Part shown: in pieces, positions 9,986 to 59,765 of the stretch
Layout of the letters: each line of letters begins with the position of its first letter
Numbering within the stretch: position 1 is the stretch's first letter
Assembly: GCF_004010195.1 (NCBI RefSeq)
Contig: NC_057749.1
Location: forward strand, 18,268,488-18,332,487
DNA: 64,000 nucleotides
Reading direction: 5' to 3'
Source: Chiloscyllium plagiosum
Lineage: Eukaryota
The notes under the pieces: generated by a model
Told to the model about the DNA's origin: nothing
Database searches by the model: none
What the model saw: only the letters and a program-made list of their open reading frames with translations
Made by a program: the position numbers and the translations under genes

Positions 9986-10079
9986 GTTGAAACTTTATTG
10001 CTGGAACAGCACAGCAGGTCAGGCAGCATCCAGGGAACAGGAGATTCGACGTTTCGGGCACAGGCCCTTCTTCAGGAAA
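9986..10079 (-). mobile_element. 94-bp Penelope-derived mini-insertion (family A) with hammerhead motif
   Basis: 14-bp TSD GAAGAATAACCAAA (9972-9985 and 10080-10093). Minus strand reads TTC-CTGAAGA-A-GGGC-CTGT-GCCC-GAAA-CG-TC-GAA. Confidence 0.8.
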
Positions 10080-10696
10080 GAAGAATAACCAAATACTTGT
10101 TAAGGACAGGATAAGTAGAATACCAGAGAAGACCAGCCAGAAATATACGACCAGCTTGTAGGAGTTCCATAAAGATTTTAAAAAGAAAATAATCAAACTG
10201 AACATTGGTCCATTAGAAAGAGGATCCAAAGGTAAGCAGTTTGGATGGATTGGCCATGCTAAATTGCCCAGTGTTCAGGGAATGTGTAGGCTAGGTGGAT
10301 TGACCAAGGTAAATGCAGGGTTACAGGGATCAGGTGCAAGCCTGGATCTGAGTGGGATGCTCTTCAGAGAGTCGGTGTGGACTCAATGGGCTGAATGGCC
10401 TCTTTCTGCACTGTAGGGATTCTGTGGTTCCATCTGTCCTTTGAACATCAAGATTTCATAGCCTTTATGTAAACTAACAAGTAATCTAAAAACCAACAGT
10501 AAACACTTCTAAAGTGGCTGAGGTAAATGTCTCTTTAGTGAATGAAACTGATGAATTAATAATGGAAACAGGAATACAGTTGAGAATTTAAACAAGTGTT
10601 TTGTATCAGCCTTCTTAGCAGGGAACACAAAAAACATCTCAAGAACAGTAGGAAATCAAGGAGCAATAGAAGGAAGGAAATTAAGACAATTAGAGC

Positions 10697-11042
10697 GACA
10701 TGGCGGCTCAGTGGTTAGCACCTCTGCCTCACAGCGCTGGAGACCCCGGTTCAATTCCCGCCTCAGGCAACTGTCTGTGTGGAGTTTGCACATTCTCCCC
10801 GTGTCTGCGTGGGTTTCCTCCGGGTGCTCCGGTTTCCTCCCACAGTCACAAAGATGTGCAGGTCAGGTGGATTGGCCATGCTAAATTGCACAAAGTGTTC
10901 AGTGTTGTGCAGGACAGTTGGGTTAGCCATGGAAAATGCAAGGTTACAGAGATGTGGTGGGTCTGGGTGGGATGCTGTTTGGAACGTCGGTGTGGACTTG
11001 TTGGGTCAAATGGCCTCTTTCCACACTGTAGGGATTCTATGG
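10697..11042 (+). mobile_element. HE1-like SINE
   Basis: A/B boxes and conserved body. Confidence 0.9.
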
Positions 11043-11774
11043 AATCACTTTCACTGAGGAAAAGCCACCACATAAAGTAATGGGCTGAAATTTGATATAT
11101 CCCTCACACAGCATGAACACCTTTTAACCTGAGCTCATAAAAGAAGTGGCTGCTGAGAATGTGGATACATTTATTGTAATCTTCCAAAGCTCCCTAGATT
11201 CTGGAAAGATCCCAGCAGATTGGAAAAACTGCAAATCAAATACCAATATTCAAGAAAAGGGGCAGTCAGGAAGACAATTAGCCGAAAGTCTGACAGTGGA
11301 AAATGCTGAAATTCGTTATTAAATGGATAAAAGCAGCACATTTTAAAAACCATAATACAATCAGGCAAGGTTAACATTGTTTTGTGAATGGGGAAAATCA
11401 TACTTCACTAATTTAATGGAATTATTTGAGAAGGTAGCAAGTCAAGTAGATAAAGAGGAATTTGTAGATGTGGTATATTGGGATTTTAAAAAGATATTCG
11501 ATAAAGACCTGCTCTGAATTATCTCCAAAACGTGTATACCCCTCAAGTAAGGCGATCAAATCTGTACATGTCATTCCAGTGCAGTCACACCAATGTGCTG
11601 TAAAGTTATAACAAGGCTCCCCTAGTTTTGAACTCCATTCCCCTTCTATTAAAAATGTCAACATTCCATTTGCCGCCTTCATTTTGATTCGTGAGGCACT
11701 GGCACATTCTTCACTTGAACTGTGCTGAGATTGGAGCAGAATGGACCATTCCTGCTCCAATTAGTTGTTTTTAT

Positions 11775-12150
11775 TTTATTCATTCAGTGGGCATTGTTGG
11801 CTGGGCCAGCCTTTATTACTCGTCCCTAATTGTCTTGAAGCAGTTGGTAGTGAGCAGTTTGCAGTCCTTGAATCTCAGGATATCCACAGTGCTTTTCAAA
11901 ATGGAGATCCGTGGTTTTGATGCTACAACAGCAGCATTATCCTTCTAAGTCAGGACTGTGTCAGGTTCAGACAGGGGCTTGCAGGTGGTGGTGTTCCCAT
12001 ACATCTCTTGCCCTTGTCCTCGAGATGGTAGTGGTTAAAGGTCTGGAAGGTGCAATGTCAAGACCCTTGGTGAGTTATTGCCATGAATTTTGTAGATGGT
12101 ACACATTGCTGATCCTGTGGACTGGTGGTGGAGGGAGTCAATGATGGAGG
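11775..12150 (-). mobile_element. 3' end of an old LINE family (related copies at about 46390-46710, 50885-51050, 53115-53335)
   Basis: Recurring motif ATTCATTCATGGGATGTGG...CTGGGCCAGC...CCCTTGAGAAGGTGGTGGTGAGC...GATTTTGACCCAG. Confidence 0.6.
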
Positions 12151-12981
12151 TGTCCTTCATATTTATTCCCTCACTTAATTTTGATTTTGTGCACGATTTT
12201 ATTTTGAATAGAAGTGATTCATTATATATTTCCCATGTTAGATCCTGCATGTCTCAGTCTGGTTTCTTCAATCAGATTGTTTAAGATATGTTATTACTTG
12301 GGGAAAGGACATCACTGAAAGGATTTAAAATCACTAAATATTCTCCAAACTTCAAGACCATTCCAAAACTCTGGGTCTCAGATTGGACACATTACTCTAG
12401 CTGAGTCCCAGCCAGTGATTTGACAGAGCTTAGACCTGTTTTTGTTTCACTCTGTGCTTCTAGTTAGAAAGTTAATGACTTTATTTCTTAATCTTAATCA
12501 CAGTCTTTCATTTCTCCTTTCAGTATGTCCAGTAATACTGGGAATGATGGAGAAAGTGCTAAATAATGCAGCAATAATAAAAAGTACATAACAGTCCTGG
12601 AAAAAGTAAAATCTTTTGTGTAGGTCATTAGACCTTGAGTTAGTTGTACAGGTTTATTTGTCTTTGTTTGTTTTTCACAGAGTGTGAGAATCACTGGTAA
12701 GGCTCAATTGGTATTGAGCTGCTCACTTGGCCATTTCAGAGTCAATCAGGGATGTGACCTGGAGTCACCAGACTTTGCTTGGTTTCCCTCCCCAAAGGGC
12801 ATTAGTGAATTGGGTGGGATTTTATGACAAAGAAGTTGTAATTTTACAGTTGCTGTCACTAGTTTTTAATTCCAGAATTTTGTTAAATTAATTTAGGTTT
12901 CCCCAGCTACCAGGATGAGATTTGAACCCGTCACCAGACCATTAGTCTGGGATTTGGAGTAACTAGACCAGTGACATAACA

Positions 12982-13212
12982 AGAGTTGAGAGTGGGGTGC
13001 TGGAAAAGCAAGCAGGTCAGGCAGCATCTGAGGAGCAGGAGAATCGACGTTTCAGGCCGAAGCCATTCATCAGGAATGAGCTCATTCCTGACGAAGGGCT
13101 CCGGCCCGAAACATTGATTCTCCTGCTCCTCGGATGCTGCCTGACCTGCTGTGCTTTTCCAGCACCCCACTCTCAACTCTGATCTCCAGCATCTGCAGAC
13201 CTCACTGTCTCC
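12982..13212. mobile_element. Family A mini-PLE hairpin: arms about 99 bp, no spacer (centre GAG|CTC at 13080/13081), plus tail
   Basis: Arms are reverse complements; hammerhead core on both strands; imperfect flanking duplication CCAGTGAC..ATAAC. Confidence 0.85.
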
Positions 13213-14212
13213 CAGTGACGGAATAACTACACCACTGTCTCTTCCTGGGAGTTTGGTTTAACTAATTCATATATATGTGTTGATGCTCCACAAAAGCTTC
13301 CCCTTGCTTATTCTCAACCTATTGACATATCTTTCCTTTTCTTTCTCCCTCATGTCAGGTTCCCTGAGGAAATCTCAACAACTGCTTGAAAACCCACCCA
13401 CTCTGGGCAAGTAAATGTCTCTGGAATTCTCTACGCCTCCTAGCACCGGTCTTCCACATAGGTTTAAATATTTTCTCTAAGTCTATCCTATCAAAACTTT
13501 TCATAATCTTAAAGATCTCCATGAGGTCACCTCTCACTTCTCCGTTTTCTTGAGAAAAGAATGCCCATTTGTTCTTGATGTAACCTCTCATTTCTAGAAT
13601 CGTTTTCGGAAATCTTGGAGGGAATATTGTAACCAATTATAGTAATTGGAGGAACAGAATAACATTCTCCTGTCAGACCAGTTGTAATTTGAGACAAACC
13701 AGTGTGCTCAGGTGGTGCAGAAACTTGTGAATCATCTGCGAATATCAATTAATTTAGATGCTTAGAATTGTCCCTGCTGCCAAGAAGTCACTCTACAGAA
13801 GAAAACATAGTGATCCAGGCAGGGGATTTCAATTAGTCAGGATTCAATACTCTGAGTTACCTCCAGTGATCCTGCCCAATGTTGTTTTGCAAATCTCTTT
13901 GATTTCACTGGAGTTGGAGGGGATGCTCCCCTGTCATCCTGATTTGATTATAATCTGCAGTGTCAGAACTTCAAAAAGGTTCATTTAGGGATACCAGGAA
14001 CTGGATGAAATTCCAGTGGTTTGGCCTGCCCATGAGATACTCCAATGTAATTGTATTTCACTTTTACCTCCAGTGATTGGTTTTTGCTTTGTAGACCGGC
14101 AAGATTCCTTTCCAGCATTGTCTAAGATATATTGTAGACGCAATGAAAAATGCAAATGAAACCATTAATAATACCGAGGTAGTAAACAAGACTTACCTTG
14201 GATTCTGGGTAA

Positions 14213-17074: not shown

Positions 17075-20000
17075 TTTTTTTATATAATATATTTTTATTA
17101 AGAAAAAATAGATTTTTAAATATTACAANNNNNNNNNNNNNNNNNNNNTTTTTAAAAACCTAAACTAGCTATTTAACTAAATAAATACCTAACAACAAAC
17201 AAATAAATAGTAATAACTCAGCCCAGCCAAACAACACACTCATACATTCACAGTTCCTCCTCCCTGGATATTGGACTCATGAAACACAATCGTTACGGCT
17301 ATATAAACATCCTTGTTAGTTTGGCAGATAAATCTGTGTCCAGGTATTTCAAAAAGGGTTGCCATGTCTTGTAAAAATTCTCAGTTTTGTGGTGTACCAT
17401 ATTTGTGAGAAAATCCAGGGGAATATGCTCCATAACAATCTTCCGCCAACCCGACAGGCCTGGAGGGTTTTTCTGCTATCCAACCTAGCAAGATATTCTT
17501 CTTTGCACAGAATGTAAGAATATTGAAAAGTTTTGCCTTATGTGAGTCTGTAGGGTAGGCCCAAAAGGAGCGAAATAGGGTCCTTCTCCACCCCTACACC
17601 TAAAATCCTCTCCATTGCACCCACCACAGCGCTCCAATATGTTTGAAGCCTGTCACAAGACCAAAGACAATGGGTAAGAGTACCCGTACAGACCTTGCAC
17701 TTGGGGCATGCTGAAGACACCACTGGTTTAAATTTTGACAAACGGTCTGGGGCTAAGTGGACCCTGTGGAGAATCTTCAACTGTGAAGCATGGGTCCTAT
17801 TGCAAATTGATATCTTCCTTGCATTCTCCCAAATATCCTCCCATGCCTCTGAAGAAACTTCAACACCCAGCTCTCTTTCCCACATCTTGCAGAGTCGATC
17901 AGACTCATCTGAGGTGGCACACCCCAACTGGTGATATAGAGTACTGACAGAGAGTGTACTCTTAGCCCTTAGTACCCCTCTCTCTATGTCAGATTTGTAG
18001 GGATCAGTCAAAAATGTGGTCTTTTTTTGAATAAAATCCCTAACTTGAAAAAAATGAAAGAGGTCTCTACTAGGTAACTCGTACTTCCGTACTAACTGAT
18101 CGAAGGACATCATTACATCTCCCTCAAATAAATCACCCATGCAAGATATACCCCTAGCTGCCCAACGTTTAAATCCTGAATCTATCATACCTGGTTGAAA
18201 ACCTAGCATACCCACTAAAGGTGTAAACAAAGATGTTTTGCCAATATTACCTTCCCTCTGCCAAATTGTCCTCCATGCTTTAACAGTATTGGTGACTATT
18301 GGGTTATGGCAATATTCCCTAACTGTCCTCACCTTGTCCAAAATCAGCAAACTGGTAAGGGGGCACCTTGCCTGGGAGACTTCGATATCTAGCCATATTG
18401 AAAGAGGGTCCCCACAAACCCAATCACTTACATAGGTCAAAAGCGAGCTTAATTGGTAATTTTTAATGTCCGGAAGGTCTACTCCCCCCAATCTGTGAGG
18501 CAACCGCAGTTTGGCTAATTTAATGAGGGGCCGTTTACGGTGCCAGATAAAGGAGCTGAACCAACTGTTCAGTCTCCTGAGTGTTTATTGAAAATCAGGG
18601 GGAGCATCCGTGTAGGGTATAGCAAACTAGGGAGAATATTCATCTTAATAAGCGCTATCCGACCCAACCATGAGACTGGAAGTGCCTCCCATCTTTGGAG
18701 ATCTTGTTTAATTTTTTCAAATAATTGAGTAAAATGGACTTTGAGCAGCCAATACAGAACTGGAGTAATGAATATTCCCAAACACGCAAACCCCCCCTGT
18801 GACCACCTAAATGGGAATCTATAGTCACTCTCAAGAGCCAACTCTTTCGTAAGACCACCCATAGGCATAGCCTCTGATTTAGCAAAATTAATCTTACACC
18901 CTGAAAAAGTGCCAAACGCGTGAATGCATTGTATCAGGCAAGGCACTGAGACTGCTGGATTTGTCAAGAAAATTAGAACATCATCTGCATACAGCGAGAT
19001 CTTATGTAACTTTGACCCCACTTCTGGAGCTGATATATTGAGATCCCCACGAATGGCCTCCGCCAATGGTTCAATAACCAACGTAAAAAGTAATGGTGAA
19101 AGGGGACAGCCCTGCCGGCTGCCCCTAGAAATATTAAAATTGCTTGATCGTACCCCGTTGATAATGACCGCCGCGAGAGGTACACTGTAGAGAACCTTTA
19201 CCCATCTTATGAAAACTTCGCCCAGACCAAACCGGTCTAGAGTATAGAAAAGGTACAGCCACTCAACTCGGTCAAATGCCTTCTCTGCATCTAAAGAAAT
19301 CACCAATCCCCGTATTGACTGCTGTTGAGGGAGACAAACATGACTATGAATCATTTAACATATTCCTTGTAGAATTCACTGGGAAGTCCATCAGGACCGG
19401 GCGCCTTTCCACTCTGAAGCTGCCTCACAGCTTCCTGCACTTCTTGCTCTGATAATGGGGCATTGAGAAAGGACTGTTGTTCGGGAGTCACAGCCAGGAG
19501 CTTCAGATCTCTAAAAAATGATTCCGTTTTGGCCTGCCCCTCCTCGCGATTCTCAGACTGATGTAATTTAGAGTAGAATCTCTGGAACGCCACATTAATC
19601 TTTTTAGAATCACATGTTAGGTTCCCAGACCCTTCCCTAATCGCTGTAATGGTTTGTGGGGCACTTCTCTTTCTGACAAGGTATGCTAAGTATTTGCCTG
19701 GCTTGTCACCATGCTCATATAACCTTTGCTTTGCAAAAGCCAGCTCCTTCTTTGCCATCTGCGTGAGCACGGAATTTAGTGCAGACCACAGTGCCATAAT
19801 CCTCTGTCAAAATAGGCCTTCTCGGCTGCCTTCAACCATCTCAACCACCTTCACTTCTCCCAGCTAGAGCCGCATCGCAAGCACAAGCTAAAAAGAATAA
19901 ACACCCCATAGAATATCAATATGAATTTAAAAAAAATTCTTTTATAAAAAAAAAAGGAATAAATACCCCACCCATCCTTTGGTATGTCCTAACTTAGAAA

Positions 20001-22305
20001 TTTAAAATGTACATCTTAACCACCGCCAGACATAGTTGCTGCTCACCCTTCTGCCGCTTCCTACTTGTGGAATATGAAATAACTAACCCTCTGGCATAAG
20101 CTTTGGCAGTTTCCCAGAGAACAGATGAGCTATCAACCAAGCCTATGTTGATGTCTAGGAATGCCCGAAATTCCCTAGAGAAATACTCCACAAACTTGCT
20201 GTCCATGAAAATAAAGGGGTCCATTCGCCAGTACCTTGAATCCACTGTAACATCCTTAATTTTAACTATGAGGTACACTGGAGCATGATCAGAGACGGCA
20301 ATATTACCAATCGTACAGGATGCCACCAGATCCAGGGTTACCACAGGGGTCAGAAATAAATCAATCCTCGTGTGAAATCTGTGCGGATTGGAGAAAAACG
20401 TGAAATCCCTACCTGTAGGGTGGAGACACCTCCAGACGTCCACCAACCCTAATTCCCCACACAAACCCAATAACTGTTTAGTTTGTGCCGAGGGTATCGA
20501 GGGACCTTTAGGCAACCTGTCTACTGTGGGGTCCATGAGGCAGTTAAAATCTCCACCTATAATGATGTGCCAAGACTTGAGACTTATCTGTTTAGAAAAA
20601 GCATCTACCAAGAATTTAAGAGGATGAGCTGGGGGACAATAAACATTTAAAGTGCCATATTCTTCCCCATTTATCAAGGCTTTAAGAATTACAAACCTCC
20701 CGTATGTGTCTTTAACACATTCCAACAATTTAAATGAGAGATTTTTCCTAATTAATATGGCCACTTCCCTACTTCTGCTATTAAATGATGAAAAATAAAC
20801 TCGGTCAAAGCCATTCTGCTGTAATTTCAGATGCTCCTTGTCATCCAAATGTGTCTCCTGTAACAAAGCAATATCCACCTTCTCCTTTCTAAGACTCAAG
20901 AGTGCCTTCTTCCTCTTAATTGGTGAGTGACTTCCCTTGATATTCCAGGTACACCATTTAATCAAATCATTAGTCATAATCTTCTGCAATTACATTTAAA
21001 TTCCAGAGAGGAGGAACCCGAACCACAAATTGCTAAGCCTTAGTGTCACATGATCCACCAAATATAAAAACTACATAAACTAAAACCACTACATTTAACA
21101 AATGTACAAAACTATTAAAAAATAAAAAACAACAAAAACCAGAAAACAAACCAACATATAAAGCGCCAATAGTGCTGAGTAGGGGAACTACAAGTCCCAG
21201 AGGAGGCACTACCTGTCCCGAACTGCCCATAAATAGGCATGTAACCATCTCAACCACCTTCACTTCTCCCAGCTAGAGCCGCATCGCAAGCACAAGCTAA
21301 AAAGAATAAACACCCGATAGAATATCAATATGAATTTAAAAAAAAATTCTTTTATAAAAAAAAAGGAATAAATACCCCACCCATCCTTTGGTATGTCCTA
21401 ACTTAGAAATTTAAAATGTACATCTTAACCACCGCCAGACATAGTTTGAACCAAATTATTATCAATAGAGGAAAAAAAGGGGAAAAACAAAGCTCCAACC
21501 GGATTTCCTCCATTTCTTTTACAGAATGATAAACGCATACCCAAGCAACAATATTTATACATATTACAATTGTTTAAATTAGGTTAGTTTGTCCACAAAG
21601 TCTCTTGCCTTCTCCGATGTGTTAAAGAGATGCATGGATCCATCTAAGGTGATCCGAAGCACTGCCGGATATCTCAGGGAGTACTGAATCCCAAGCTCCT
21701 TCAATCTTCTCCTGACACCATCATATGATTTTCATTTCTGGCTTCCTTACCCTCAGGCAGACCGATGATCCGAATGTTTTTCCTCCTGCCCCTGTTTTCA
21801 AGATCATCCACTTGGTCACGCAAATTACGAACCTGCGTCTTCAGGGCTTGGATCTCTTCCTTGAATGAACTGGCATCAGCTTCCACCACTGTGACCCTGT
21901 GCTCCACCTCATCCGTCCTCTTCTCCAGGTCTCCCAGCTGCTGCTCATGCTTCTGCAGCATGAGAGAGACTGGAGCCAGCTTCTCTTCAATCTGTTTCCC
22001 CAACATCTTGCGAGATTTCGAGAGCAGGTTCACCAGGTCGTGGAGAGTAATCGGCTCCGAGGGTGCTGCAGGCTGAGCTGCCGGCCCGGCCTCAGATGCT
22101 CCTCCTCCCATTTTAGGCATTTCTGGACAGCTGAAAATACAGGTAAGTCAATTTCTAAATGATTCTTGGGGCTCCACAATCTTTCCAACACCCCAAGAAA
22201 TCCTGATGACCTGGGTTGGGTGGGTTAAAGGATTGTCCTGCTCCTGCTGCGATGCAAAGCTCTGCAGTGTGATCTTCTCAGATCGCCGCCATCTTAGATC
22301 CCCCC
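17075..22305 (-). mobile_element. Near full-length decayed L1 (ORF1 about 22120-21550; ORF2 EN 20989-20040, RT about 19800-18500, C-terminal Cys motif to about 17300)
   Basis: ORF1 LENRGRRKNIRIIGLPEG; EN WNIKG..LQETHL..GGDFN..RIDLF..SDHAP; RT SLDAEKAFDRV, RQGCPLSPLLF, LYADD; CPKC..LTHCLWSC; poly-A end at about 17075; 5' GGGGGGATCTAAGATGGCGG; flanking AC(T/C)TCCCTC duplication. Confidence 0.95.
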
Positions 22306-24214
22306 ACCTCCCTCATTTTATACTCTATTTGTTTAAGCCATGCTGACTCTGCTTGACCATACTGTACATTTCTAAATAGTTTGCTATTACATCCTTTATA
22401 ACAGATTTTAATCCATTTCATTGTAGTCTCTATATAAATAGATCTAAAACAAAAATAGATTTTACAACTATTGTATATCCCTCCTCTGAGAAACTGAACA
22501 CTACATTGAAATCTTGAATCGAACTTTACACCTTGAGTTTTGGGCTGTGGGAACTGCAAGGGAGACTAGGAGGTTGTATATTCTCCATCTGTACAGGCTA
22601 ACAGTGTCTGTCCAGCCTCATCTGCAAGCAACAACCTTGTAGTGTACAGTTGACACATGCTAAAGAGGAGTCCTCCAGCTGTTTGACAACACAGCTGTCT
22701 CTGGTCCCCAGAAAGAAGTTGGTGATGCGGAAAATGAGTCGTTAACTGGGTTCTACTCATTGATTGGAACCTCTCCCGGTCCCTGGAGAAAGGCAGCAGA
22801 TGCAGCACACGCTGCCTGCCTAATCTGACGTAGCCCCGTGATTGATAGCAATGAGCTCATGAGGACTTTAACAAATGGCTATCACTTGGCCCAGGGCAGA
22901 TCAGCTTTGTTCACACCACATGACAATATTGTGCAGGGTTTGGCTGAGCGAATAGCTGCTGTGAAGGAAATGATCTGGGAATGCACTGTATTCTTTGGTG
23001 AATGTTGTTTTTGTGAGGGCCTTTGTGCTGCAGGTAGATCTTGTTAAATGTTATGAACTATTACATAGAAGACAAGAGCAATGGAAACCAGGAAACAGCT
23101 GCAAGTCCAGTGGGAAAGAGGCTAAATAAATGAAATGGCTGGTGACCACTTGGGATATGTGGATCCAAACAAAGTTGGTAGGTAGAGCTAGTGAGGTATT
23201 TGCATCACTATCAGGGAAGGTATCTGGGGTGTATGAGGAGATGAAGAAAGCCATCTTAAATGCATACGAGCTTGGACCAGAAGCCTACAGACAACATTTT
23301 AGGAATCAAAGGCGGGAACCTGGTCAAATGTACATAGAGTTTGAAAGGATCAAACAAAGTAATTTTGATAGATGGATGAATCAAACATACAACGCTCTTA
23401 GAGAGAGAATTATTTTGGAGGAGTTCAAAAATTCACTTTCTGAAATAGTGCGAACTCATGTGGAAGAGCAGAGAGTTAAAACAGCAAGATCAGCAACTGA
23501 AATGGCAGCTGATTACAAGTTGGTTCATAAATTAAAGTTTGGTTTCTGACATCAATTTCAATCTGTGAGGGATAGGAATTGGGGAAGGAGAAATCCTCTG
23601 GAGGTAAGGGATAAGGAGATCTCACTGACGATAATAAAGATTGTTTACCACATGAGGGGGAAAAGGGAAGTACAAAATGTTCAGGTGTTTCCACGGTAAT
23701 AAAGTAGGTTACATAACGTCACAGCGTTGGTTTAGAAAAAGCACTGGGAAGATGGAGATGGGAAAACAGGATAAGCCACTTCCTTTACCACTTGATGAAG
23801 GCGGAAAACACAGTGGAAGCTAAAAAGCCGCAAAAGAATGTATAACCTGGTCAAATGTTGGTTGAGAAGAAAGTGCCAGATCACTTTAAATAATTTACTT
23901 GTAAAGGTAAGGTCTACTCATGTATACCAGGAGGAGTAGGGAAAGAAATTAAGATTTTAAAAGATGATTCAACTTTTGATGGTGAGCTATGAGGAGATAT
24001 GTAATTCAGAAGGCGTATTGCCGGAAAATAATGGGAATGTGTAGAATTCATGGTGAGAAGAGCAGTGTTCCATTATATAAATTGAGGTTGGTGAGTCCGG
24101 TAAAAAGTGGAGAAGTGGTGCTGGGCGTAATAAAGAAATTCTCAGTTGCAGGAATACAGTTAATCTTTGGTAATGCTACAGGTTATCATTCATGCCTACT
24201 GTGGTTGAAAGGCC

Positions 24215-24342
24215 TTCCTGAAGAAGGGCTTATGCCCGAAACATCGATTCTCCTGCTCCTTTGATGCTGCCTGACCTGCTGCGCTTTTCCAGCAACACAT
24301 TTTCAGCTCTGATCTCCAGCATCTGCAGTCCTCACTTTCTCC
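24215..24342 (+). mobile_element. 128-bp family A mini-PLE with hammerhead motif, inserted in the Gypsy
   Basis: 10-bp TSD TTGAAAGGCC (24205-24214 and 24343-24352); TTC-CTGAAGA-A-GGGC-TTAT-GCCC-GAAA. Confidence 0.85.
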
Positions 24343-25990
24343 TTGAAAGGCCAGTGGAAAATCAGGCAACCGAGGGATTACAGGAAGTGTATCCTGGGAT
24401 TTTTCCAGATTATTGGTGGCAAATCCATAGAGGAGAAATCAAAGAATAAAGAATATGGTTGAGAAAAAAACAAGAACAGGTGGAGGACAAAGTTTTTAGT
24501 TTGGAGAAATTACTGAAGTACAACAGGAAGGGGAAAAACTAAAGCAGTTGAATCATAAAGCATACACAGCAGGAGAATCTGAGTGTATTCCAGAGTGTTA
24601 CTGTCTTAAAAATGAAGTCTTGATGAGGAAATGGAGACCATCACATATTCAAGCAGATGAAAAGTGGGCAGAAGTTCATCGAGTTGTATTGCCATTGGGT
24701 TATAGAAAGGGTAGCCAGTTGGAGGCCATTTGTGAATAAGGAAAACTCAAGCCAAAATAGAAAAAATATTCTTATTAGCCTGGACTGCATAAGGATGTGG
24801 TTGACTTTTGCCAGACATGTCATTTGGAAAATCTCAGGCAGTGATAAAACTAGCACCTTTAATATTCATTCCTGCATTTGAGGAAACTTTTACAGGATCT
24901 TCATTGATTGTGTAGGAACCCTACCTAAAACAAAGAGTGGGTATCAGTATTTGCTGACCATAATGGATGCGTCTACTAGATTTCCAGAGGCCATTCCATT
25001 ATGTAGTACCATGGTGAAAGGATTGGAAAAGATTTACTCAAATCTTTCACTAGATACGGACTACCTGCAGAGATACAATTAGATCAAAGATCAAATTTTA
25101 CATCAAAACTATTCAAGGAAGTTTTGGATAGGCCTACTAAACCTGACCTTTAAAGGTTCACCTACCACTGGAAGTAACACTGACACTTTATCTCTACTGA
25201 CAAAATTATCAATTTTTGATCTCTAGCCTGTTTCCTGTTTCATCACATGCTATGCTACTTTCAAATGCTGTCTAGACGACTCACCCGCTCTATTTAATCT
25301 TTTCCTAAGATTTGACACATAGTCCAAATGTATAAAACAATATGAATCCACTGTTTACCACCCAGAATCACAGGGAGCATTAGAACAGTGGTATCAAACT
25401 TCAAAGACCATGTTGAAGGCCAATAGTCAAGACTATCCGGGGATTGGGATAAAGGAATTCCATTTGTACTTTTTGCAGTTAGGGATGCACCTAATGAATC
25501 AACTAAATTCGGTCCATTTGTATTAGTTTTTGGGCATGAGGTAAGAGGACCGCCAAAGTTAAAGAGAAATTGGTTAGTCAGAGTTCAGAGACCATACATT
25601 TGGACTATGTGTCAAGAAGTTCTGAAAAGTTGGGATCAACTATTGAGATCATTCCAAACCTGAAGGAGTTATTATGATCACATGTGAGATATGTGGGAAT
25701 AAGATGGGAAATAGTGATCTAATTAAGCATGAAATAGAATGGGGAATGCTGTTCCAATTAAGCAACATCCGTATAGGCTTAATCCTCAAGTTGGCAGAGG
25801 TTCAAAAGAGATTGAACGCGTGCGCAAAGACAATATAATTGAAGGGAATTGCAGTGACTGGAGCTCACCCATTGTAATGGTACCAAATGTGGACTATCAC
25901 AAAGTCAACGAAGTTACCAACTCTGATTCATATCCTAATCCATGTTTGGAAGACTGTATTGAGAAGGTGAGACAAGCAATTTATATTTCT

Positions 25991-30912: not shown

Positions 30913-30959
30913 AAAACCTCTAAGGCTATAAGTATGTCAGGAATAAACAAATGACTACT

Positions 30960-35294: not shown

Positions 35295-36232
35295 ACATTA
35301 GTGAGCAATATTAGGGCACATGGTATTGGGGGCAAAGTACTAACTTGGATTGAAAGTTGGTTGGCTGATAGGAAACAAAGAGTAGTGATAAACGGCTCCA
35401 TTTCGGAATGGCAGGCAGTGACCAGTGGAGTACCGCAGGGATCAGTACTGGGACCACAGCTTTTTACAGTATATGTTAATGATATAGAAGATGGTATTAG
35501 TAATAACATTAGCAAATTTGCTGATGATACAAAGCTGGGTGGCAGGGTGAAATGTGAGGAGGATATTAGGAGATTACAGGGTAACCTGGACAGGTTAGGT
35601 GAGTGGTCAGATGCATGGCAGATGCAGTTTAATGTGGATAAGTGTATGGTTATCCACGTTAGTGGCAAGAATAGGAAGGCAGATTACTACCTAAATGAAA
35701 TCAATTTAGGTAAAGGGGCAGTACAGAGAGATCTGGGTGTTCTTGTACACCAGTCAATGAAGGCAAGCATACAGGTATAGCAGGTAGTGAAGAAGGCTAA
35801 TAGCATACTGGCCTTCATAACAAGANNNNNNNNNNNNNNNNNNNNNNNNNNNNNNNNNNNNNNNNNNNNNNNNNNNNNNNNNNNNNNNNNNNNNNNNNNN
35901 NNNNNNNNNNNNNNNNNNNNNNNNNTGCCGAACCAGAGGACACAGTTTAAAAATAAGGGATAGGCCATTTAGGACAGAGATGAGGAGAAACTTCTTCACC
36001 CAGAGAGTGGTGGCTGTGTGGAATGCTCTGCCCCAGAGGGCAGTGGAGGCCCACTCTCTGGATTCATTTAAGAAAGAGTTGGATAGAGCTCTCAAGGATA
36101 GTGGAATCAAAGGTTATGGAGATAAGGCAGGAACAGGATACTGATTGAGGATGATCAGCCATGATCATATTGAATGGCGGTGCAGGCTCGAAGGGCTGAA
36201 TGGCCTACTCCTGCACCTATTGTCTATTGTTC
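35295..36232 (+). mobile_element. CR1 RT fragment nested in a minus-strand CR1 tail
   Basis: [18 protein letters not shown]...KFADDTKLGG; (CTATTGT)n tail. Confidence 0.92.
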
Positions 36233-37299: not shown

Positions 37300-37595
37300 C
37301 AGGGGTTGCACCTTCTGTGGTTACATGGGACGGTGCCGGGGGATGGGGGAGTGGTCATTGAGAAATGGACGAAGGTGTCCCTGAGGGAACAGTCCTTGCA
37401 AAATGCATATAGTGAGGTGAGGGGAACATATAATGTGAAGGTGAGGACTGTAGATGCTAGAGAGGTTGAAGTCGAAAAGAGTGGCGCAGCATCCGAGGAG
37501 CAGGAGAGGACATAAACCCAAAAGGTTGACTCTCCTGCTCCTCGGATGCTGCCTGACTTGTTGTGCTTTTCCAGCACCACTCTTTTCGACTCAAA
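37300..37595 (-). mobile_element. PLE fragment (pre-GIY-YIG linker) plus a degenerate mini-PLE hairpin (about 37436-37592)
   Basis: SLRDTFVHFS..PGTVPCNHRRC; inverted CAGCATCCGAGGAGCAGGAGA / TCTCCTGCTCCTCGGATGCTG. Confidence 0.65.
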
Positions 37596-37744
37596 TATGT
37601 AATGTGATAAGGAGCTTAGGAATATGTGGGAATGGGTGACTGTGGTAAAACAGCCCATGTCATAACAAGGTTGGGAGTGGGGTGGATAAAAAAACATGGA
37701 AGGAATCAGGCTCTAAAGTTATTGAACTCAGTGTTGAGTCCGAG

Positions 37745-40200: not shown

Positions 40201-41280
40201 TGGATTTTCCCTGCCCTGTGTTGAATGTCTGCAATTTTGCACTCTCATTCAACATTCCCCTAATTTCCGACTGTGTTCTGGGACTCCCTGGTCCGGCCTG
40301 GCAGTTTGGACTCAGTCCCACAGCCTCACAGATCCTGAAAGGGGGAGAGTTGTCATTGCCGTCTTGATGAAAAGATCAAGAGCCTCTGTTTCACCTCCAG
40401 ACCCCATCCATCCATCTTCCCAGTGGCTGCATTTTGTTTCTCATTTGGATTTGCAGCTTTAGGATTAAATCCATATTTTCAGAATACCCCTCTGGGTTTT
40501 TTTTTTGAGCTCCACTTTGGGTTTCTGTACTCTGCTCCCTGCTATCCTCACTCTGCTCTGTTTCCTTCAATCTCCTCCCTGTTTTGTGATTCAGCTTTTG
40601 GTTTCTGCAGCCCTGCTCTGGGTTTCCAATCTCCACTCTTGATTTTCTGATTCTACTTTGTGTTTCATGCTGCTTTGGCCAAGATTTCCTGTCACTGCCT
40701 CGGATTTCTGACTCTAATCTGTATTTTGGTTACTCTGCTCGAGGTGACTGAGAGCCAGATCCTTGCCCTCTGCTGCTCAGGCACAGTTTCCAGTTTCCCA
40801 TCTGCACCTCGCTGGGTTTTCTGACTCCACTCCGAATTGCTTGATTCTGCTCTGGATTTTACCCACTTTGGTCTGAATTTCCTGGATTCCCCCCTGGGTT
40901 TACTGACTTTCTTTTGCCCTCTCTGACTCTGCACTGGAATCCATTTCCAGATTTTGTGCTTTCATTCTGGGTTTTCATTACTCTGCTCCAGGTTTTCCAG
41001 ACTCCATAGTGTATTTTCAAACTCTGGTTCGGGGTTTTGTAACATCTCTGTGAGTTTTGTGACAGTGCTGCACCTTTTCAGATTCTGTTTCTGATTTTCA
41101 GACTCTGCTCCAGGTTTCTGTACTCCACTCCCGATTTTCAGATAGCACACCAGGCTTTTGATTCCCTTTAGGTTTACCGAGTCCAATCCAGGTTTACATA
41201 TTCCAATCCGGAATTGTAGATTCCATTCCAGGTTTCCAGGCTCTGCTCTGGTTTACCTGACCTGGCTCCTGTTTTAAATA

Positions 41281-41408
41281 GGAGGAGAAAGTGAGGTCTG
41301 CAGATGCTGGAGATCAGAGCTGAAAATGTGTTGCTGGAAAAGCGCAGCAGGTCAGGCAGCATCCAAGGAACAGGAGAATCGACGTTTTGGGCATAAGGCC
41401 TTCTTCAT
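41281..41408 (-). mobile_element. 128-bp family A mini-PLE
   Basis: 14-bp TSD TCCTGTTTTAAATA (41267-41280 and 41409-41422); hammerhead partly mutated. Confidence 0.85.
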
Positions 41409-41979
41409 TCCTGTTTTAAATACTCCGCTCCATGGCTTTATGGTGCAGCTCTGTGGTTTCAATAACCACATTCTGATTATGAAACCCAACTCCAGGTTTT
41501 GTGACTTCAATTGTCGTTTTTCTTCTCTGTTCCATGTTTTCATAGTTTGCCGTAGGTTTTCAGATTCAATCCGCATTTCCAGATTCCACGTTATTTGTAA
41601 AGACTTAGTTCTGGGTTTAAGACTCTGCTTCAGGTTTCAGATTCACATGGATTTTTAAACTCTCTTCCTCTCTGGATTTCCAGAGTTTGAACACTGATCT
41701 GTTTTTCATTTCGTAATTCCGCATCAGGATTTCAGACTTGCCCTAGATTTCCAGATACACCTTTCCAAATATCCACACTCCAATCTGGGTTTAAGACTCG
41801 GCTCTGGGATTCGCCAACCCACTCCAGATTTTTTAGTCTCCACTCCAGGTTTCCGGGCTCAGTTCTGGAATTTTAGGTTTGGATGCAGTTTTCCAGAATC
41901 CAATCACAGTTTCCTGGTTCTCATGTGGGTTTTCAGTCTCCATCCTGGTTTTGTCACATTCCAGTTTGTGTTTCTAGAC

Positions 41980-42202
41980 ACAAAAACAGAAATTAATGGA
42001 AAAACTCAGCAGGTCTGGCAGCATCTATGGAGAGAAAGCAGAGTTAATATTTTGGGTCCAGTCTGAAGAAGGGTGACTGGAACTGAAACTTTAACTGCTT
42101 TCTCTCCATGGATGCTGCCAGACCGGCTGAGTTTTTCCAGCAATTTCTGGTTTTGTTTCTGATTTCTAGAGTCTGCAATTCTTTTGTATTTTTTTTGTTC
42201 AC
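41980..42202. mobile_element. Family B mini-PLE hairpin
   Basis: 11-bp TSD TGTTTCTAGAC; inverted CTCAGCAGGTCTGGCAGCATC / GATGCTGCCAGACCGGCTGAG; degenerate CTGAAGA...GAAAC. Confidence 0.75.
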
Positions 42203-43576: not shown

Positions 43577-44303
43577 CGTGTCCTCACGCTCCGGTCCGGA
43601 TTCTCGCAGTCCGGTCCGTGTCCTCACACTCCGGTCCGGAATCTCGCAGTCCGGTCCGTGTCCTCACACTCCGGTCCGGGACCTGTCAGTCCGATCCGTG
43701 TCCTCACGCTCCGGTCCGGAATCTCTCAGTCCGCTCCGTGTCCTCACACTCCGGTCCGGGACCTGTCAGTCCGCACCGTGTCCTCACACTCCGGTCCGGG
43801 ACCTGTCAGTCCAATCCGTGTCCTCACGCTCCGGTCCGGGATCTGTCAGTCCGCTCCGTGTCCTCACACTCCGGTCCGGGATCTGTCAGTCCGATCCGTG
43901 TCCTCACGCTCCGGTCCGGGACCTGTCAGTCCGATCCGTGTCCTCACGCTCCGGGCCGGGATCTCTCAGTCCGCTCCGTGTCCTCACACTCCGGTCCGGA
44001 ATCTCTCAGTCCGCTACGTGTCCTCACACTCTGATCCGGGATCTGTCAGTCCGCTCCGTGTCCTCACACTCCGGTCCGGGATCTGTCAGTCCGCTCCGTG
44101 TCCTCACGCACCGGTCCGGGACCTGTCAGTCCACTCCGTGTCCTCATACTCCGGTCCGGGACCTGTCAGTCCGCTCCATGTCCTCATACTCCGGTCCGGG
44201 ACCTGTCAGTCCGCTCCGTGTCCTCATACTCCGGTCCGGGATCTCTCAGTCCGCACCGTGTCCTCACACTCCGGTCCGGGACCTGTCTGTCCGCTCCGTG
44301 TCC
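43577..44303. repeat. GC-rich 40-bp minisatellite (TCCTCACACTCCGGTCCGGGACCTGTCAGTCCGCTCCGTG)n, about 18 copies, runs into a gap
   Basis: Direct tandem repetition with variant units. Confidence 0.97.
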
Positions 44304-45039
44304 NNNNNNNNNNNNNNNNNNNNNNNNNNNNNNNNNNNNNNNNNNNNNNNNNNNNNNNNNNNNNNNNNNNNNNNNNNNNNNNNNNNNNNNNNNNNNNNNN
44401 NNNNNNNNNNNNNNNNNNNNNNNNNNNNNNNNNNNNNNNNNNNNNNNNNNNNNNNNNNNNNNNNNNNNNNNNNNNNNNNNNNNNNNNNNNNNNNNNNNNN
44501 NNNNNNNNNNNNNNNNNNNNNNNNNNNNNNNNNNNNNNNNNNNNNNNNNNNNNNNNNNNNNNNNNNNNNNNNNNNNNNNNNNNNNNNNNNNNNNNNNNNN
44601 NNNNNNNNNNNNNNNNNNNNNNNNNNNNNNNNNNNNNNNNNNNNNNNNNNNNNNNNNNNNNNNNNNNNNNNNNNNNNNNNNNNNNNNNNNNNNNNNNNNN
44701 NNNNNNNNNNNNNNNNNNNNNNNNNNNNNNNNNNNNNNNNNNNNNNNNNNNNNNNNNNNNNNNNNNNNNNNNNNNNNNNNNNNNNNNNNNNNNNNNNNNN
44801 NNNGCGATGTCCTCGTATGTCAGATGTGTGAACTGTCTTGGCTGATTGCCATGATATCTGCAGTGGGCAAACTGTCGAGCAGGTTTGCCGGTGAGTGTTG
44901 TTCATTGTGAGATGATTTTAAAGACAGCAATGCAATCATGTCCAGATGACACAGGGACTAATCAGCAAGTGTCCAGTAATCTCAGACACATATTCAACCC
45001 CCCCGCCCCCAGCTTCCGTTGTCTGACTTCAGCAGGACT

Positions 45040-51998: not shown

Positions 51999-52532
51999 TC
52001 GGGTGTCAATTTCATTTTTGCTTATCTCCCCGAAAGGAGTCACGTAGCAGAGAATAGAATGATAGCTTGTGATTGTCAAGAGGATCCTTGTTACGGTCTT
52101 TGCTGTAAAGAGGTATTTTGTTGACTATTTTTAACTGTGGGCAATGTTTTGTTCTGTTATTTAACTAGCAAATCCAGTTTGAACTGAGCCTTGAAGAAAA
52201 GACTGATATTACAACTATTTATCTCAGTTTCTTCTTGGCTTCTCTATTTAAACCATTTATACTCCCCCCTGGTTTCCCCCACCCCTTAGTCCAATACCTC
52301 CGTTTCTTTAAAGAGGGATGATAACTGCTATTCCATGAGCTGGGATGTGTACAGAATATTTTTCTGAATTGACTATTTTCACTTCTCTCTGGGGAAGACC
52401 TGGCTTCTCTGGAAAATTTAAGGGTGAAGTTTTGAACTTGGGCAAAGTCCACCTTATTGTCATTCTGAATTAGAGCAGTTTCTAATTTGCTGTCTTCTAA
52501 AATGCAGTGGCAGGTTATTTATTGGAATTCTG

Positions 52533-53060
52533 GATCAGTGGTGCTGGAAGAGCACAGCAATTCAGGCAGCATCCGAGGACAGGCAAAATCGACGTCTCGG
52601 GCAAAAGCCCTTCATCAGGAATAAAGGCAGAGAGCCTGAAGCGTGGAGAGATAAGCTAGAGGAGGGTGGGGGTGGGGAGAGAGTGGCATAGAGTACAATA
52701 GNNNNNNNNNNNNNNNNNNNNNNNNNNNNNNNNNNNNNNNNNNNNNNNNNNNNNNNNNNNNNNNNNNNNNNNNNNNNNNNNNNNNNNNNNNNNNNNNNNN
52801 NNNNNNNNNNNNNNNNNNNNNNNNNNNNNNNNNNNNNNNNNNNNNNNNNNNNNNNNNNNNNNNNNNNNNNNNNNNNNNNNNNNNNNNNNNNNNNNNNNNN
52901 NNNNNNNNNNNNNNNNNNNNNNNNGCTCCTTTGGGGCCTTGGATAGAGGTAAGGGAGGAGGTGTGGGCACAGGTTTTACAGTTCCTGCAGTGGCAGGGGA
53001 AAGTGCCAGGATGGGAGGGTGGGTCGTAGGGGGGCGTGGACCTGACCAGGTAGTCACGGA
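52533..53060 (-). mobile_element. PLE 3' part (gapped): coding remnant linked to a family A terminus
   Basis: RDYLVRS..HPGTFPCHCRNCKTCAHTSSLTSIQGPKG; minus strand ATTCCTGATGAAGGGCTTTTGCCCGAGACGTCG. Confidence 0.85.
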
Positions 53061-54960: not shown

Positions 54961-55014
54961 TTGATGCTGGTGGTCTGTCTGGTTTGATTTCTTTGTTAAG
55001 ACTTTGTGGAGATT

Positions 55015-55997: not shown

Positions 55998-56846
55998 TAT
56001 TATGAAATAAAGATAGCAAGCCAAACTAAATCAGCCTCACTATCACTTAGATTTGCAGCACAGTGAAATTAAAAATTCAATAACCCTTAAAATTGCTTAA
56101 TTGTTCCTAGCTAGACTGTATGAATAAAAGATCTTGGATGTCAAGATTATATCAAAAATTAACAATAATAACATAACTTTATGAACTTGGGCTAAGAAAC
56201 AACAAGGTAATCTCTGATGTAAGGCCTAATCTTTGATTTAGACCCCTCACTCAGGCAGACACAGTTAAGGGATATATTAAAAAGAAAATAATTGTGATTT
56301 TCCATGGTCAATAAGCAGTTTCAAAAGACGGATGCTAGGCCTTCAGAAATCCTTGGACAATTTCTTGTTCATCGGCAAATAGAGTTGTATGTCTTGTTTG
56401 AATTCCAGAGTCACCGGTTAATGCAAACCATTTCAGCAGACTTCTATAAATATTAACTTATTTCTTACAGACTGGGTTTCTTTTCTCAGAATATTCAACA
56501 ATTTGAAAACTAGAGTCTCTTGTCACAAGCAAGTCAGATCCGGTTTGTTCTCATTTTTCTCTTTCCAATCAACGTTTTCTGTGATTGGTTGGCTAGCACT
56601 TATCCTCCCTTGATTGACCAATTCACCATCCAACCAGTTGCCAGCCCTGAGCACAGCAACCACTTGGTGCAGGTTTGTCTACAGTGATCTTCGATTGGTC
56701 ATTACTCTCCAGGTCAGTTCACAGCAGAAACTGTTGTCTTTCTTCTCTTTTTTTAAAACAAGCTGCTGTTTAAAGTTCAATTCTTAACTTCAACTCTCAG
56801 TTCCAAACTCAAAAAGAAGAAAAATAAGGTACTGATGGTCTCAATA
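55998..56846. mobile_element. Probable solo LTR inserted in a minus-strand CR1 relic (about 55510-58020)
   Basis: TATT...AATA termini with GTAA duplication; CR1 host is contiguous on both sides. Confidence 0.45.
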
Positions 56847-59067
56847 GTAAGACTTCCCTATTTTGTACTCTAGTTCCTTTTGAAATATTGGCCAACATTC
56901 CATTTGCTTTCTTTATTTCCCACTGAATGTGGGTGGTAGCTCTTGTGATTCATGCTCAAGGACCCCCACACCCTCTGTTCCATTACTTTCTGCAGTCTTT
57001 CACTGATTAAATATTATCCTGCTCTTCTATTCCTGCCACAATATTTAACCTCATATTCTCCCACATTATATTTCAACTGCCAAATTTTTCTGCCTCACTT
57101 AACCTGCCCATGTCACTCTACAGACACTTTGCCATCATCACCATTTGCCTTCCCACCTAATTTTCTTTGTCATCTGTGAATTTAGCAATAGTACATTCAC
57201 CTTCCTAATCCTTGTCATGAATATATAATAAATAATTGTGGCTCTAGTGTTGATTTCTGTGACACTCCACGAATTACAAGTTGGCATCATGAAAATGTCC
57301 TCTCAGCCCAACTCTGTCTTTTGTTAGTTGTACATTACCATGGGTATGGAATTGGCTTAGTGTCAACACCATGAGCTGCTTATCTTTTTAGGTAGCTTAT
57401 ATGTGTGGTAGCTAATCAGACACTTTTAAAAATCCAAACATATTTCATCCACCGTTTACCTCCTTGTTTACCCTGTTTGCTGCCTCTTCAAATAATTCTA
57501 ATAGATTTGTCAGGTTTGAAGACTTAGGATTAGGGTTAAGTTGACTCTGCTTGATCATATTATATATTTCTAAAAGCTGTGCTTTATCTCCTTTATAATA
57601 GACTGACATCCCAGGAACAGATATTAAGCTAACTGGCCTATGGTTAGCTGTTTTTCTAATCTCCTTTTTTGAATTAAGGTGATAGATTGGCATGTTCTCC
57701 AGTTTTCTGGAAATTTTCCAGAATCTTACAAGGTATCCATTATCTCTGTAGCTACTTTATTTAATATCTTAGGATGCATCCCAAGGGATTTATTGGTCTT
57801 TGGCCCCAGTACATTTTCTCTAGTGATGATCATTGTATTTATTTTGACTTCTCTTTTTACTTTTTGATTATTTCGAAAGCACCAATAGAATTCCAAAAAT
57901 ACTATCTGATGCAAAGTCGTTATTTAATTCCTCTGCCATTTCCTGGCTTTTCATTATTATTTCCCCAGCATCATTCTCTAAGGAGCCTATGTTCACTTTG
58001 GATGTTGTCTTCCTTTTCTTATGTATTTTGGAACTTGGTACCTGAAAGAGCAATTCAGGCAGAAACCCTAGTTACTTTTAAATCCACTTGCACTTCACTT
58101 GAAGCGCCTTAACTTGGTTTACAGACCAAGAACTGAAAAGTAAAAATAGGCTGGTTTGCTTGTTTTCTGATCTAGCACAGACATGATGGGCTGAATAGTT
58201 GCCTCCCGTATACTTGTACTGCTTCATTCTGTAATGTACTGAACAACTGGAGTATGAAGTTAGTTAGTACTCGTTGCTTCAATGAGGAGATGAAGATTAG
58301 ATTAATTTGCATTTTCAACAATTTTTCTACATTAGAAATTCATTCTATCCAGTTGTGATTTTACAGCTATGAATTTATCAGCTAACTGTGGTTGAAATAT
58401 TGATTAAGTTTGTTAGATTGCCTAGAATTGATTCCAGAGAAGCATAAAACAGGGCAAAATGGAGGGAGCCCACCTGTACATTGCTAAGCTGTGTAAGAAG
58501 ACCTTAAATTGGAAAATCCCATGACCCAGTCTGAAAGCTGTCGGTACAAGTCAATCAGGTAGGTAATTGAGGATCATAGTGGAGTGCTGCTGTAGTTGAG
58601 ATATGGCATTAATACTGTCTGCTTGCTCAGGTGAAGGTTAGAGATTATTTGATGCAGTTTAAAAAGAACAGTGTGTTCTCATGTCATGGCCAAATCTCTT
58701 TGCTTACTCATAAACAAGTTAATTTGCTGTGTATGCAAAATGGCTGTTGTATTTACTTAACTAACTGTGACTGCACTTTAATCCATTTGTATAAAGTACT
58801 TTGGGGGCTAATGTACTAATGATACGAAAGGCCCTTTTTCTGACTCATGGTGTTGAGTTCCTTCATTTCCCATGAGTTTGGATGTCCACCCTACCCAGTT
58901 TGGGGTGAAAATGGTAACTATTGCAATGGATGGAAACCTATTGTTTGAATTTGAGAAAGTAGGAATCAGGACTGCCTTCCACCTGTCTCTTCAAAGTTTT
59001 CAGATATGCTTTCTGCCCTCAATCCTCTCCCTTTGGTGTGAGAAATGTTTCTCTTCTCTCACTCCAG

Positions 59068-59765
59068 GATAATTTGAGGAAAGACATTCTGGCTATTGAG
59101 GGAGGACAGCGTAGGTTCATGAGGTCAGTTCTTATGCTGAAAGATTGGAGCGACTGGGCTTGTATACACCTGAGTTTAAAAGGCTGAGAGGGGATCTGAT
59201 TGAGACGTATAAGATTATTAAAGGATTGGACACTCTGGAGGCAGGAAGCATGTTTCTGTGATGGGTGAGTCCTGAACCAGAGGACACAGTTTAAAAATAA
59301 GGGGTAGGCCACTTAGAACAGAGTTGAGGAGAAACGTCTTCACCCAGAGAGTGGTGGGTGTATGGAATGCTCTGCCCCAGAAGGCTGTGGAGGCCAAGCC
59401 TCTGGATACTTTCAAGAAAGGAGAAAGTGAGGTCTGCAGATGCTGGAGATCAGAGCTGAAAATGTGTTGCTGGAAAAGCGCAGCAGGTCAGGCAGCATCC
59501 AGGGAACAGGAGAAGGGCTTATGCCCGAAACGTCGATTCTCCTGTTCCCTGGATGCTGCCTGACCTGCTGCGCTTTTCCAGCAACACATTTTCAGCCACT
59601 TTCAAGAAAGAGTTGGATAGAGCTCTTAAGGATAATGGAATCAAGGGTTATGGTGATAAGGCTGGAACAGGATACTGATTGAGGATGATCAGCCATGATC
59701 ATAATGAATGGTGGTGCTGGCTGGAAGGGCAGAATGGCCTACTCCTGCACCTATTGTCTATTGTC
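59068..59765 (+). mobile_element. CR1 3' fragment
   Basis: Same family as 35295-36232. Confidence 0.88.
59421..59597. mobile_element. Family A mini-PLE hairpin inserted in CR1
   Basis: 13-bp TSD ACTTTCAAGAAAG (59408-59420 and 59598-59610); perfect inverted arms around AGGGCTTATGCCCGAAACGTCG. Confidence 0.88.

Follow-up and report, generated by a model that had tools for sequence, protein, structure and literature searches.

A stretch of 64,000 nucleotides of the Chiloscyllium plagiosum genome (contig NC_057749.1, positions 18,268,488 to 18,332,487), referred to below as the window, carries a family of small non-coding inserts with a hammerhead-like motif, which are the final ~97–132 bp of Penelope-like elements (PLEs). 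Related inserts had been named at six loci in an earlier note on this DNA, and all six were matched when the copy at 24215–24342 was used as the query of a blastn search of the window. The matches were located at 9982–10078 (−), 12982–13076 (−) with 13085–13212 (+), 24215–24342 (+), 37437–37463 (−) with 37517–37580 (+), 41284–41407 (−) and 59420–59514 (−) with 59511–59596 (+), and another was found at 52538–52621 (−). The six loci belong to one family and lie between target-site duplications (TSDs) of 8–14 bp; the four TSDs quoted in the note (14, 10, 14 and 13 bp) were recovered exactly. The C of CUGA serves as position 0 for all coordinates within the family. Copies end at ~+93 or ~+128, the difference being a 35-nt tail.

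Three of the inserts are single arms. The copy at 9986–10079 (−) belongs to subfamily P3 (CUGU loop), extends from ~−4 to +93 without the tail, is 100% identical to the copy L015 across the aligned part and lies between two copies of GAAGAATAACCAAA (9972–9985 and 10080–10093). The tailed copy at 24215–24342 (+) extends from −3 to +128 between copies of TTGAAAGGCC (24205–24214 and 24343–24352), and its hammerhead-like motif can be followed base by base: UUC (24215–24217), CUGAAGA (24218–24224), A (24225), stem II (24226–24237), GAAAC (24238–24242), AUC (24243–24245, a decayed GUC) and the 3′ strand of helix I (24246–24249). The third, also tailed, occupies 41281–41408 (−), starts at +1 after one additional A and is flanked by TCCTGTTTTAAATA (41267–41280 and 41409–41422). 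Starts at ~−4, −3 and +1 bear out the claim that the single-arm copies begin near the 5′ edge of the hammerhead.

The other three inserts are pairs of arms arranged head to head. Both arms of the copy at 12976–13211 reach −7, the left one (12982–13080, −) ending at +92 without the tail and the right one (13081–13211, +) at +128 with it; the TSD is the 8-bp CCAGTGAC (12968–12975 and 13212–13219). In the copy at 37439–37592 neither arm extends as far as the CUGANGA box; the left one (−) is tailed and has an internal deletion, the right one (+) covers +17 to +97, a 15-nt filler separates them, and the TSD, read from the sequence, is imperfect and 11–13 bp long (37428–37438 and 37595–37607). At 59421–59597 a tailed left arm (−, +30 to +125) and an untailed right arm (+, +4 to +89) are joined over a 4-nt microhomology between copies of ACTTTCAAGAAAG (59408–59420 and 59598–59610). 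The hammerhead motif was present as the note had described it, but not in every copy: CUGANGA is lost at 37439–37592, the left arm at 59421 begins only at ~+30, and the copy at 24215 has AUC. The window also holds, at 41997–42144, a two-arm copy from P4, a related but older subfamily; it has AGUU/AACU as helix I, GGGUC/GACCC as stem II and a GUU triplet.

The same terminus was found attached to coding sequence, as had been claimed for 52533–53060. The 3′ end of a long P2 copy lies at 52527–53060 (−), with the hammerhead and the 3′ untranslated region at 52527–52701, a run of N at 52702–52924 and a reading frame at 52925–53060 that corresponds to the endonuclease linker; the GIY-YIG endonuclease coding end falls at ~52.5–53.1 kb, and a C-x-C-x2-C-x2-C linker was seen one frame over. 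In long copies the sequence upstream of the hammerhead, on the element's strand, holds frames typical of the PLE endonuclease region. One such endonuclease-like open reading frame (ORF), L049:3826–4098 (−), of 91 aa, had 16 matches at E≤0.001, all of them to longer proteins; the best two were uncharacterised Chiloscyllium punctatum proteins (82% and 73% identity). Its 894-aa relative P0005 scored 23.6 bits for GIY-YIG, above the cut-off of 22.6, and 24.9 bits for RVT_1, below the cut-off of 29.6; this combination of a reverse transcriptase (RT) with a C-terminal GIY-YIG domain is the canonical layout of endonuclease-bearing (EN+) PLEs. No Pfam family was detected in the three frames of the frameshifted long copy L009. 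LINE-type (long interspersed nuclear element) RT frames were seen to adjoin PLE fragments at other loci.

The motif consists of AUUC (−4 to −1), CUGANGA, one unpaired A, GGGC-N4-GCCC, GAAA, C, GUC and then GAUU or GAAU. This is the predicted layout of a minimal type-I hammerhead, with a 4-bp helix I (AUUC/GAUU) and a 4-bp stem II; an ACGU palindrome replaces stem III, which would form only between two molecules, and cleavage is predicted after GUC, at +27/+28. The minimal hammerheads (min-HHRs) of metazoan PLEs listed by Cervera and De la Peña (2014; PMC4209133) have an extra base between 9 and 10.1, a G10.1–C11.1 pair, a palindromic 15.2–16.2 without a stem III loop, so that helix III forms only as a dimer, and a helix I of 4–5 bp. 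All of these features are present here, together with the CUGANGA and GAAA boxes. The same source reports that such motifs are weakly active in vitro, that solitary copies, "probably related to truncated PLEs", number in the thousands, and that some motifs are paired on opposite strands. The stem II of 4–5 bp differs from the 7–8 bp of the Schistosoma families (PMC4209133), and the activity of the present motif is a prediction.

Pairing was analyzed in an alignment (A1) of 62 sampled copies. Here 85.7% of the cells pair in register, compared with 12–50% when the partner was slid, and the values by part were 97.6% for stem II, 72.8% for helix I and 87.1% for the ACGU palindrome. This pairing and the fit to the published description agree with the dimer-type minimal hammerhead that the note had named. 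Helix I is perfect in P3 (AUUC/GAAU), and P1 and P2 each have one U-U mismatch in it. The covariation for which the note had proposed to look was observed in part: both sides had changed in six of the 11 pairs, a level reached by 4 of 500 shuffles, but because the changes come mostly from three P4 rows, in which AUUC/GAUU becomes AGUU/AACU, GGGC/GCCC becomes GGGUC/GACCC and the triplet is GUU, they represent few independent events. The commonest loss of a box is GUC to AUC, due to CpG decay, which the exemplar at 24215 also shows; GAAAC-AU was present in 13 of the 62 copies, and 16 of the 62 have no pairing at 15.2–16.2. Minimum-free-energy folds of the monomer and the homodimer contained stem II only, and a generic hammerhead pattern, whose spacing is unsuited to this motif, gave 0 matches.

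The abundance of the family is far beyond chance. The core CTGANGAAGGGC-N4-GCCCGAAAC has 56,094 + 56,137 = 112,231 exact matches in the 3.56-Gb genome, and a reversed control of the same pattern has 0 + 0. This is about ten times the 4,000–9,000 copies quoted for coelacanth and Xenopus (PMC4209133). Three young subfamilies can be distinguished: P1 (CUGAAGA, UUAU or UCAU loop), P2 (CUGAUGA, UUUU loop) and P3 (CUGAAGA, CUGU loop, GAAU past the cleavage site). P4 is older and more diverged.

To locate the 5′ ends, an unselected sample of 264 kb (the window plus 200 kb beside it) was searched by blastn with seven natural reference copies. Forty-four arms were found, of which one at the sample edge and eight of P4 type, only partly aligned by the references, were left out. 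Apparent starts at +38 to +46 were rejected and excluded from the count, since they came from P4 arms aligned only in part. Of the remaining 35 arms, 17 start within an 18-nt window from −12 to +5, 12 at −30 or further upstream and six between +6 and +60; two were placed by eye (L048, scored at +20, really starts from ~−4, and L038, scored at +28, is really long). A second sample, the first 30 core matches on contig C1, was made up of seven single arms with a start no more than ~10 nt away from the core, 12 two-arm copies in head-to-head arrangement and 11 copies that keep 35 nt or more of the parental sequence upstream; eight further P3 loci brought the anchored set to 38.

Exact 21-mer counts over the whole genome gave the same picture. 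For P1, 18,604 matches were counted at −12 to +8, 68,426 at −1 to +19 and 84,831 at +65 to +85, so that ~81% of the arms holding +65 to +85 reach the core, ~22% reach −12 with the customary parental sequence and ~59% end between −12 and −1; the corresponding P2 counts were 13,426 versus 37,843. On a long copy, read depth rose stepwise at this point too, for RNA as well as for DNA: over successive 21-nt bins at the edge, the RNA run X19 gave 65/76, 201/224, 310/354 and 347/428, and the DNA run X15 gave 1.43, 3.13, 6.13 and 7.66 million. The starts verified by a TSD spread from −10 to +1, often with 1–3 additional bases or microhomology to the target. The 5′ breakpoints therefore do not form the continuous spread that the note had named as a refutation, and they have a hot spot at the 5′ edge of the hammerhead, where they form a narrow cluster and not a single base.

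The 3′ ends and the arm junctions were equally regular. A P1 21-mer over the junction at +93 was counted 47,494 times against the 84,831 for +65 to +85, which makes 56% of the arms tailed, and in P2 the 35-nt extension continues into fixed sequence at 1,096 or more places in the genome. Among 21 two-arm units, 18 combine an arm that reaches +119 or further with one that stops at +85 to +97; the second arm is broken off earlier in two, and both arms are tailed in one. Of the 12 anchored pairs, 11 have an anchored arm that ends at −6 to −1 and one has it ending at −19; the partner arms end between −4 and +46. Three arm junctions at +30 lie over AGAA-type microhomology, and TSDs across the examined copies are 8–16 bp long.

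The tail itself was the subject of two side observations at the long copy L009. At L009:1592–1629, X15 contigs hold joints leading 35 nt back from the 3′ end, to +92 to +95, which implies tandemly doubled tails in some copies. From L009:1624 onward, 137 X19 reads run from the 3′ end of the element into one shared flank with AATAAA; at least one copy therefore lies just upstream of the poly-A site of an expressed transcript, and this copy accounts for the strand excess over the tail in X19.

All the structural marks of PLEs were found in this family, namely a partial tandem of the pseudo-long terminal repeat (pLTR), an inverted arm, a one-sided tail and variable TSDs; they were seen in the mini-element L051 described next, in the two-arm loci (12 of 30 and 4 of 8) and in the TSDs of 8–16 bp. 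An inverted, adjacent, 5′-truncated copy lying head to head, a one-sided tail of 30–40 bp and TSDs are described as PLE hallmarks (PMC8557442, PMC3846280), and Arkhipova and colleagues reported the same inverted pLTRs, one of them tailed and the junction palindromic, and suggested self-priming. The structures shown here have thus already been described for the class, and here they occur in very high copy number.

Some P2 copies are complete or partial elements lacking an ORF. On the reverse strand of L051 (G000:C1:3868250–3869000), at ~171–671, lies a complete ORF-less P2 mini-PLE with a 14-bp TSD, in which a pLTR (from the hammerhead to +93) is followed by the tail with ~280 nt of internal sequence and by a second pLTR. 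Its two direct hammerhead cores are 406 nt apart, and its upstream pLTR starts at ~0. Since the tail sequence opens the internal region after the upstream pLTR, the tail corresponds to the first 35 nt behind the pLTR. ORF-less partial tandems were also seen, in orientation, at L022:1137–1640, L026:1357–1640 and L030:1093–1640, where a piece of pLTR with the tail is followed by 77–155 nt of the internal 5′ region, variously joined to the 3′ region and the hammerhead. These three look like independent template jumps that skipped the ORF.

Taken together, the module from ~−4 to +93, or to +128 with the tail, would be the pLTR of the element, and it opens with the minimal hammerhead. We consider it probable, at about 0.7, that the inserts are retrocopies of this 3′ terminal module made by active or recently active EN+ PLEs, and that the template RNA ended where their 5′ end now lies. 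The RT, primed on a nicked target, would begin at +93 or +128 and copy as far as the 5′ end of the RNA. That end would lie at the pLTR edge, at ~−4, which tentatively might also be a transcription start. Reverse transcription finishing there would leave a tiny single-arm insert, and a snap-back of the complementary DNA (cDNA), or a template switch over microhomology, at the same end would give an inverted arm short of the tail. Under these steps the short copies would mostly be by-products of autonomous elements and not a lineage of their own.

Since most copies span the cleavage site, the hammerhead would rarely cut before copying. Possible hints of a cleaved template were a DNA joint from +128 to +28 and a deletion in L038 ending exactly at +28. 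Near the predicted site, the 264 kb also held a single arm with its start at +32 and a junction between inverted arms at +30, and the flanks of the anchored loci contained one more single arm at +32 and two more junctions at +30. At L038:6002–6055 (chunk 76002–76055) a long copy, with its upstream coding part as N, has 20 unrelated bases in place of the hammerhead, and the element sequence restarts exactly at the first base past the predicted cleavage site. Separately, the P3 copy at L048:4729–4836 (chunk 174729–174836), 100% identical to L015 in the aligned part, is without the 12-nt stem II hairpin, which the RT may have skipped.

Several points weigh against the retrocopy interpretation. 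A folded or dimerised hammerhead that induces template switching could equally produce the hot spot. In the unselected sample 30,841 of the 264,000 bases (11.7%) are N, often where the element coding would lie, and the blastn boundaries are good to about ±3 nt. The 22–35% of arms that read through the edge in the 21-mer counts is a lower bound, because exact matches are needed and the upstream 12 nt vary between sublineages. The upstream pLTR pieces of L022, L026 and L030 start at +64, +96 and +72, and not at −4. No RNA 5′ end was seen at −4 in X19, the one raw RNA run used, which is a poly-A single-cell library that cannot show RNA ends. An initiator-like match (YYANWYY at −6 to 0, with A at −4) was noted by eye in P1, P2 and P3; a match of this length has a chance of about 1 in 128, and helix I, itself conserved, supplies three of the seven bases. 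As to the ribozyme, every box is kept in only 29 of the 62 aligned copies. The hammerhead model search proposed in the note also found none: Rfam gave 0 matches at the gathering score over the whole window, and local scans of 24150–24400 and 12950–13250 listed no hammerhead family at E≤10. The motif thus falls outside the curated Rfam hammerheads, although it fits the published min-HHR description.

The alternative that survives best, although we regard it as unlikely, is that the ~100–130-bp unit is a self-propagating PLE parasite resembling a short interspersed nuclear element (SINE) or a retrozyme. Each copy would be transcribed from an internal promoter of its own, starting at the edge of the hammerhead, and PLE proteins recognising the 3′ end held in common would copy it in trans. 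The discrete 5′ and 3′ ends, the very high copy number, the identity of up to 100% between short copies and the initiator-like sequence at the start would all suit such a unit; rotifer PLEs have been reported to be trans-mobilised via pLTRs alone, and non-autonomous PLE derivatives have been reported elsewhere. Against it, P1, P2 and P3 each include long copies that share the diagnostic bases of the short ones, so that no short-only lineage exists among the 38 anchored loci. P3 had at one point seemed short-only (0 long copies in the first six units), which was rejected when four of the eight further P3 loci, four of which are two-armed, proved to have parental upstream sequence. Moreover, the two pyrimidines upstream of −4 are lost in new copies, and the X19 reads divide about equally between the two strands and track the copy number in DNA. 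Neither RNA joints nor sharp ends were listed in X19, a library type unsuited to small circles.

In a more specific form of this idea, a shade more doubtful in our view, the solo pLTR would be a self-transcribing "SINE of PLEs" of ~100 nt, with more than 100,000 copies and with its RNA starting from the first base of a dimer-dependent hammerhead. If so, the hammerhead dimer would unite two template RNAs, which would explain the head-to-head pairs with a single tail.

The earlier note had suggested a non-autonomous, retrozyme-like unit, and the data are at odds with this part of it. No tandem array of the family was found in the window, and an insert is not excisable at both ends, because it holds one hammerhead or two on opposite strands; with long copies in every young subfamily, a separate retrozyme-like unit is not supported. 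Tandem hammerheads as in retrozymes were found only in the 406-bp P2 mini-element, and it is units of that type that do look like a retrozyme dimer. Retrozymes as non-autonomous PLE derivatives have already been published for tandem forms, and the non-LTR retrozymes (PMC7229834; Li, Clavereau & Pollet 2026, bioRxiv 10.64898/2026.07.22.740005) are, like the present inserts, non-coding, hammerhead-bearing and PLE-related. The inserts differ from them in being dispersed single or inverted units instead of tandem arrays, in having minimal instead of canonical hammerheads and in lacking release at both ends. The Sm-alpha and Sj-alpha SINE-like elements of Schistosoma (PMC6765202) are likewise short, dispersed, non-coding retroposons with a type-I hammerhead; they form families of their own with a promoter upstream of the ribozyme, whereas for the inserts no separate lineage was found.

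Among the nearest known systems are the EN+ PLEs of the Neptune/Poseidon type (Craig et al. 2021, PMC8557442; Arkhipova et al. 2013, PMC3846280), which share with the present family relatives that combine an RT with a C-terminal GIY-YIG domain, heavy 5′ truncation, pLTRs from partial tandems, TSDs of ~8–15 bp and a hammerhead near the 3′ end. The present family differs from them in a very short pLTR (~97 bp) that opens exactly with the hammerhead, in that more than half of the arms end at the hammerhead edge, and in a copy number above 100,000. No statement that the start of the pLTR coincides with the hammerhead was found in the excerpts of those two papers.

A parallel is offered by twin priming of LINE-1, in which a 5′ inversion arises from target-primed reverse transcription, with microhomology at the junction of the inverted segment. 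The present inserts differ from it in that both arms hold the 3′ end of the element, head to head, and are distinguished by a fixed 35-nt tail.

Random 5′ truncation of PLE cDNAs, with a limited processivity like that of LINEs and no preferred end, is very improbable. Heavy 5′ truncation is indeed known for PLEs, and of the 35 arms 12 break off upstream of the hammerhead and six downstream of it. However, 17 of the 35 unselected arms end in the 18-nt window, ~59% of the P1 arms end between −12 and −1 by the genome counts, and the junction with the inverted arm is at the same position. The preference of the earlier note against random truncation therefore held.

That the two-arm copies are foldback or MITE-type (miniature inverted-repeat transposable element) DNA transposons, or hairpin RNA genes such as microRNA precursors, unrelated to retrotransposition, can hardly be maintained: they do form long near-perfect hairpins, and a permissive Rfam scan lists microRNA precursor families, but none of these matches comes anywhere near the gathering score, the arms consist of PLE 3′ ends and are unequal (only one of the two is tailed in 18 of 21 units), the TSDs of 8–16 bp differ from the fixed length that a DNA transposon family would give, and single-arm forms have the same ends.

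Additionally, other features were observed in the window. A perfect 12-nt microsatellite-like array of 47 copies occupies 1–567, and a 40-nt minisatellite of 18 copies (91% matches) at 43577–44303 abuts a run of 500 N at 44304–44803. Long stop-free frames of 348, 261, 151 and 331 aa lie at 17538–20989 (−) and probably belong to another retroelement. The runs of N, 1,343 bases in total, are at 6851–7350, 17129–17148, 35826–35925, 44304–44803 and 52702–52924.

The present genome thus holds more than 100,000 copies of this family, many of which are almost identical and sharply bounded. Three regularities stand out: the 5′ end is fixed at the edge of the ribozyme, inverted pairs meet at that point, and only one arm has the 35-nt tail. 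Models of how PLEs are reverse-transcribed must reproduce all three. The quantified regularities of the ends, together with the 406-bp ORF-less mini-element, are possibly worth the attention of specialists. For annotation, short hairpin-forming repeats of this kind belong under PLE ends, and not under new RNA genes, MITEs or microRNA precursors.

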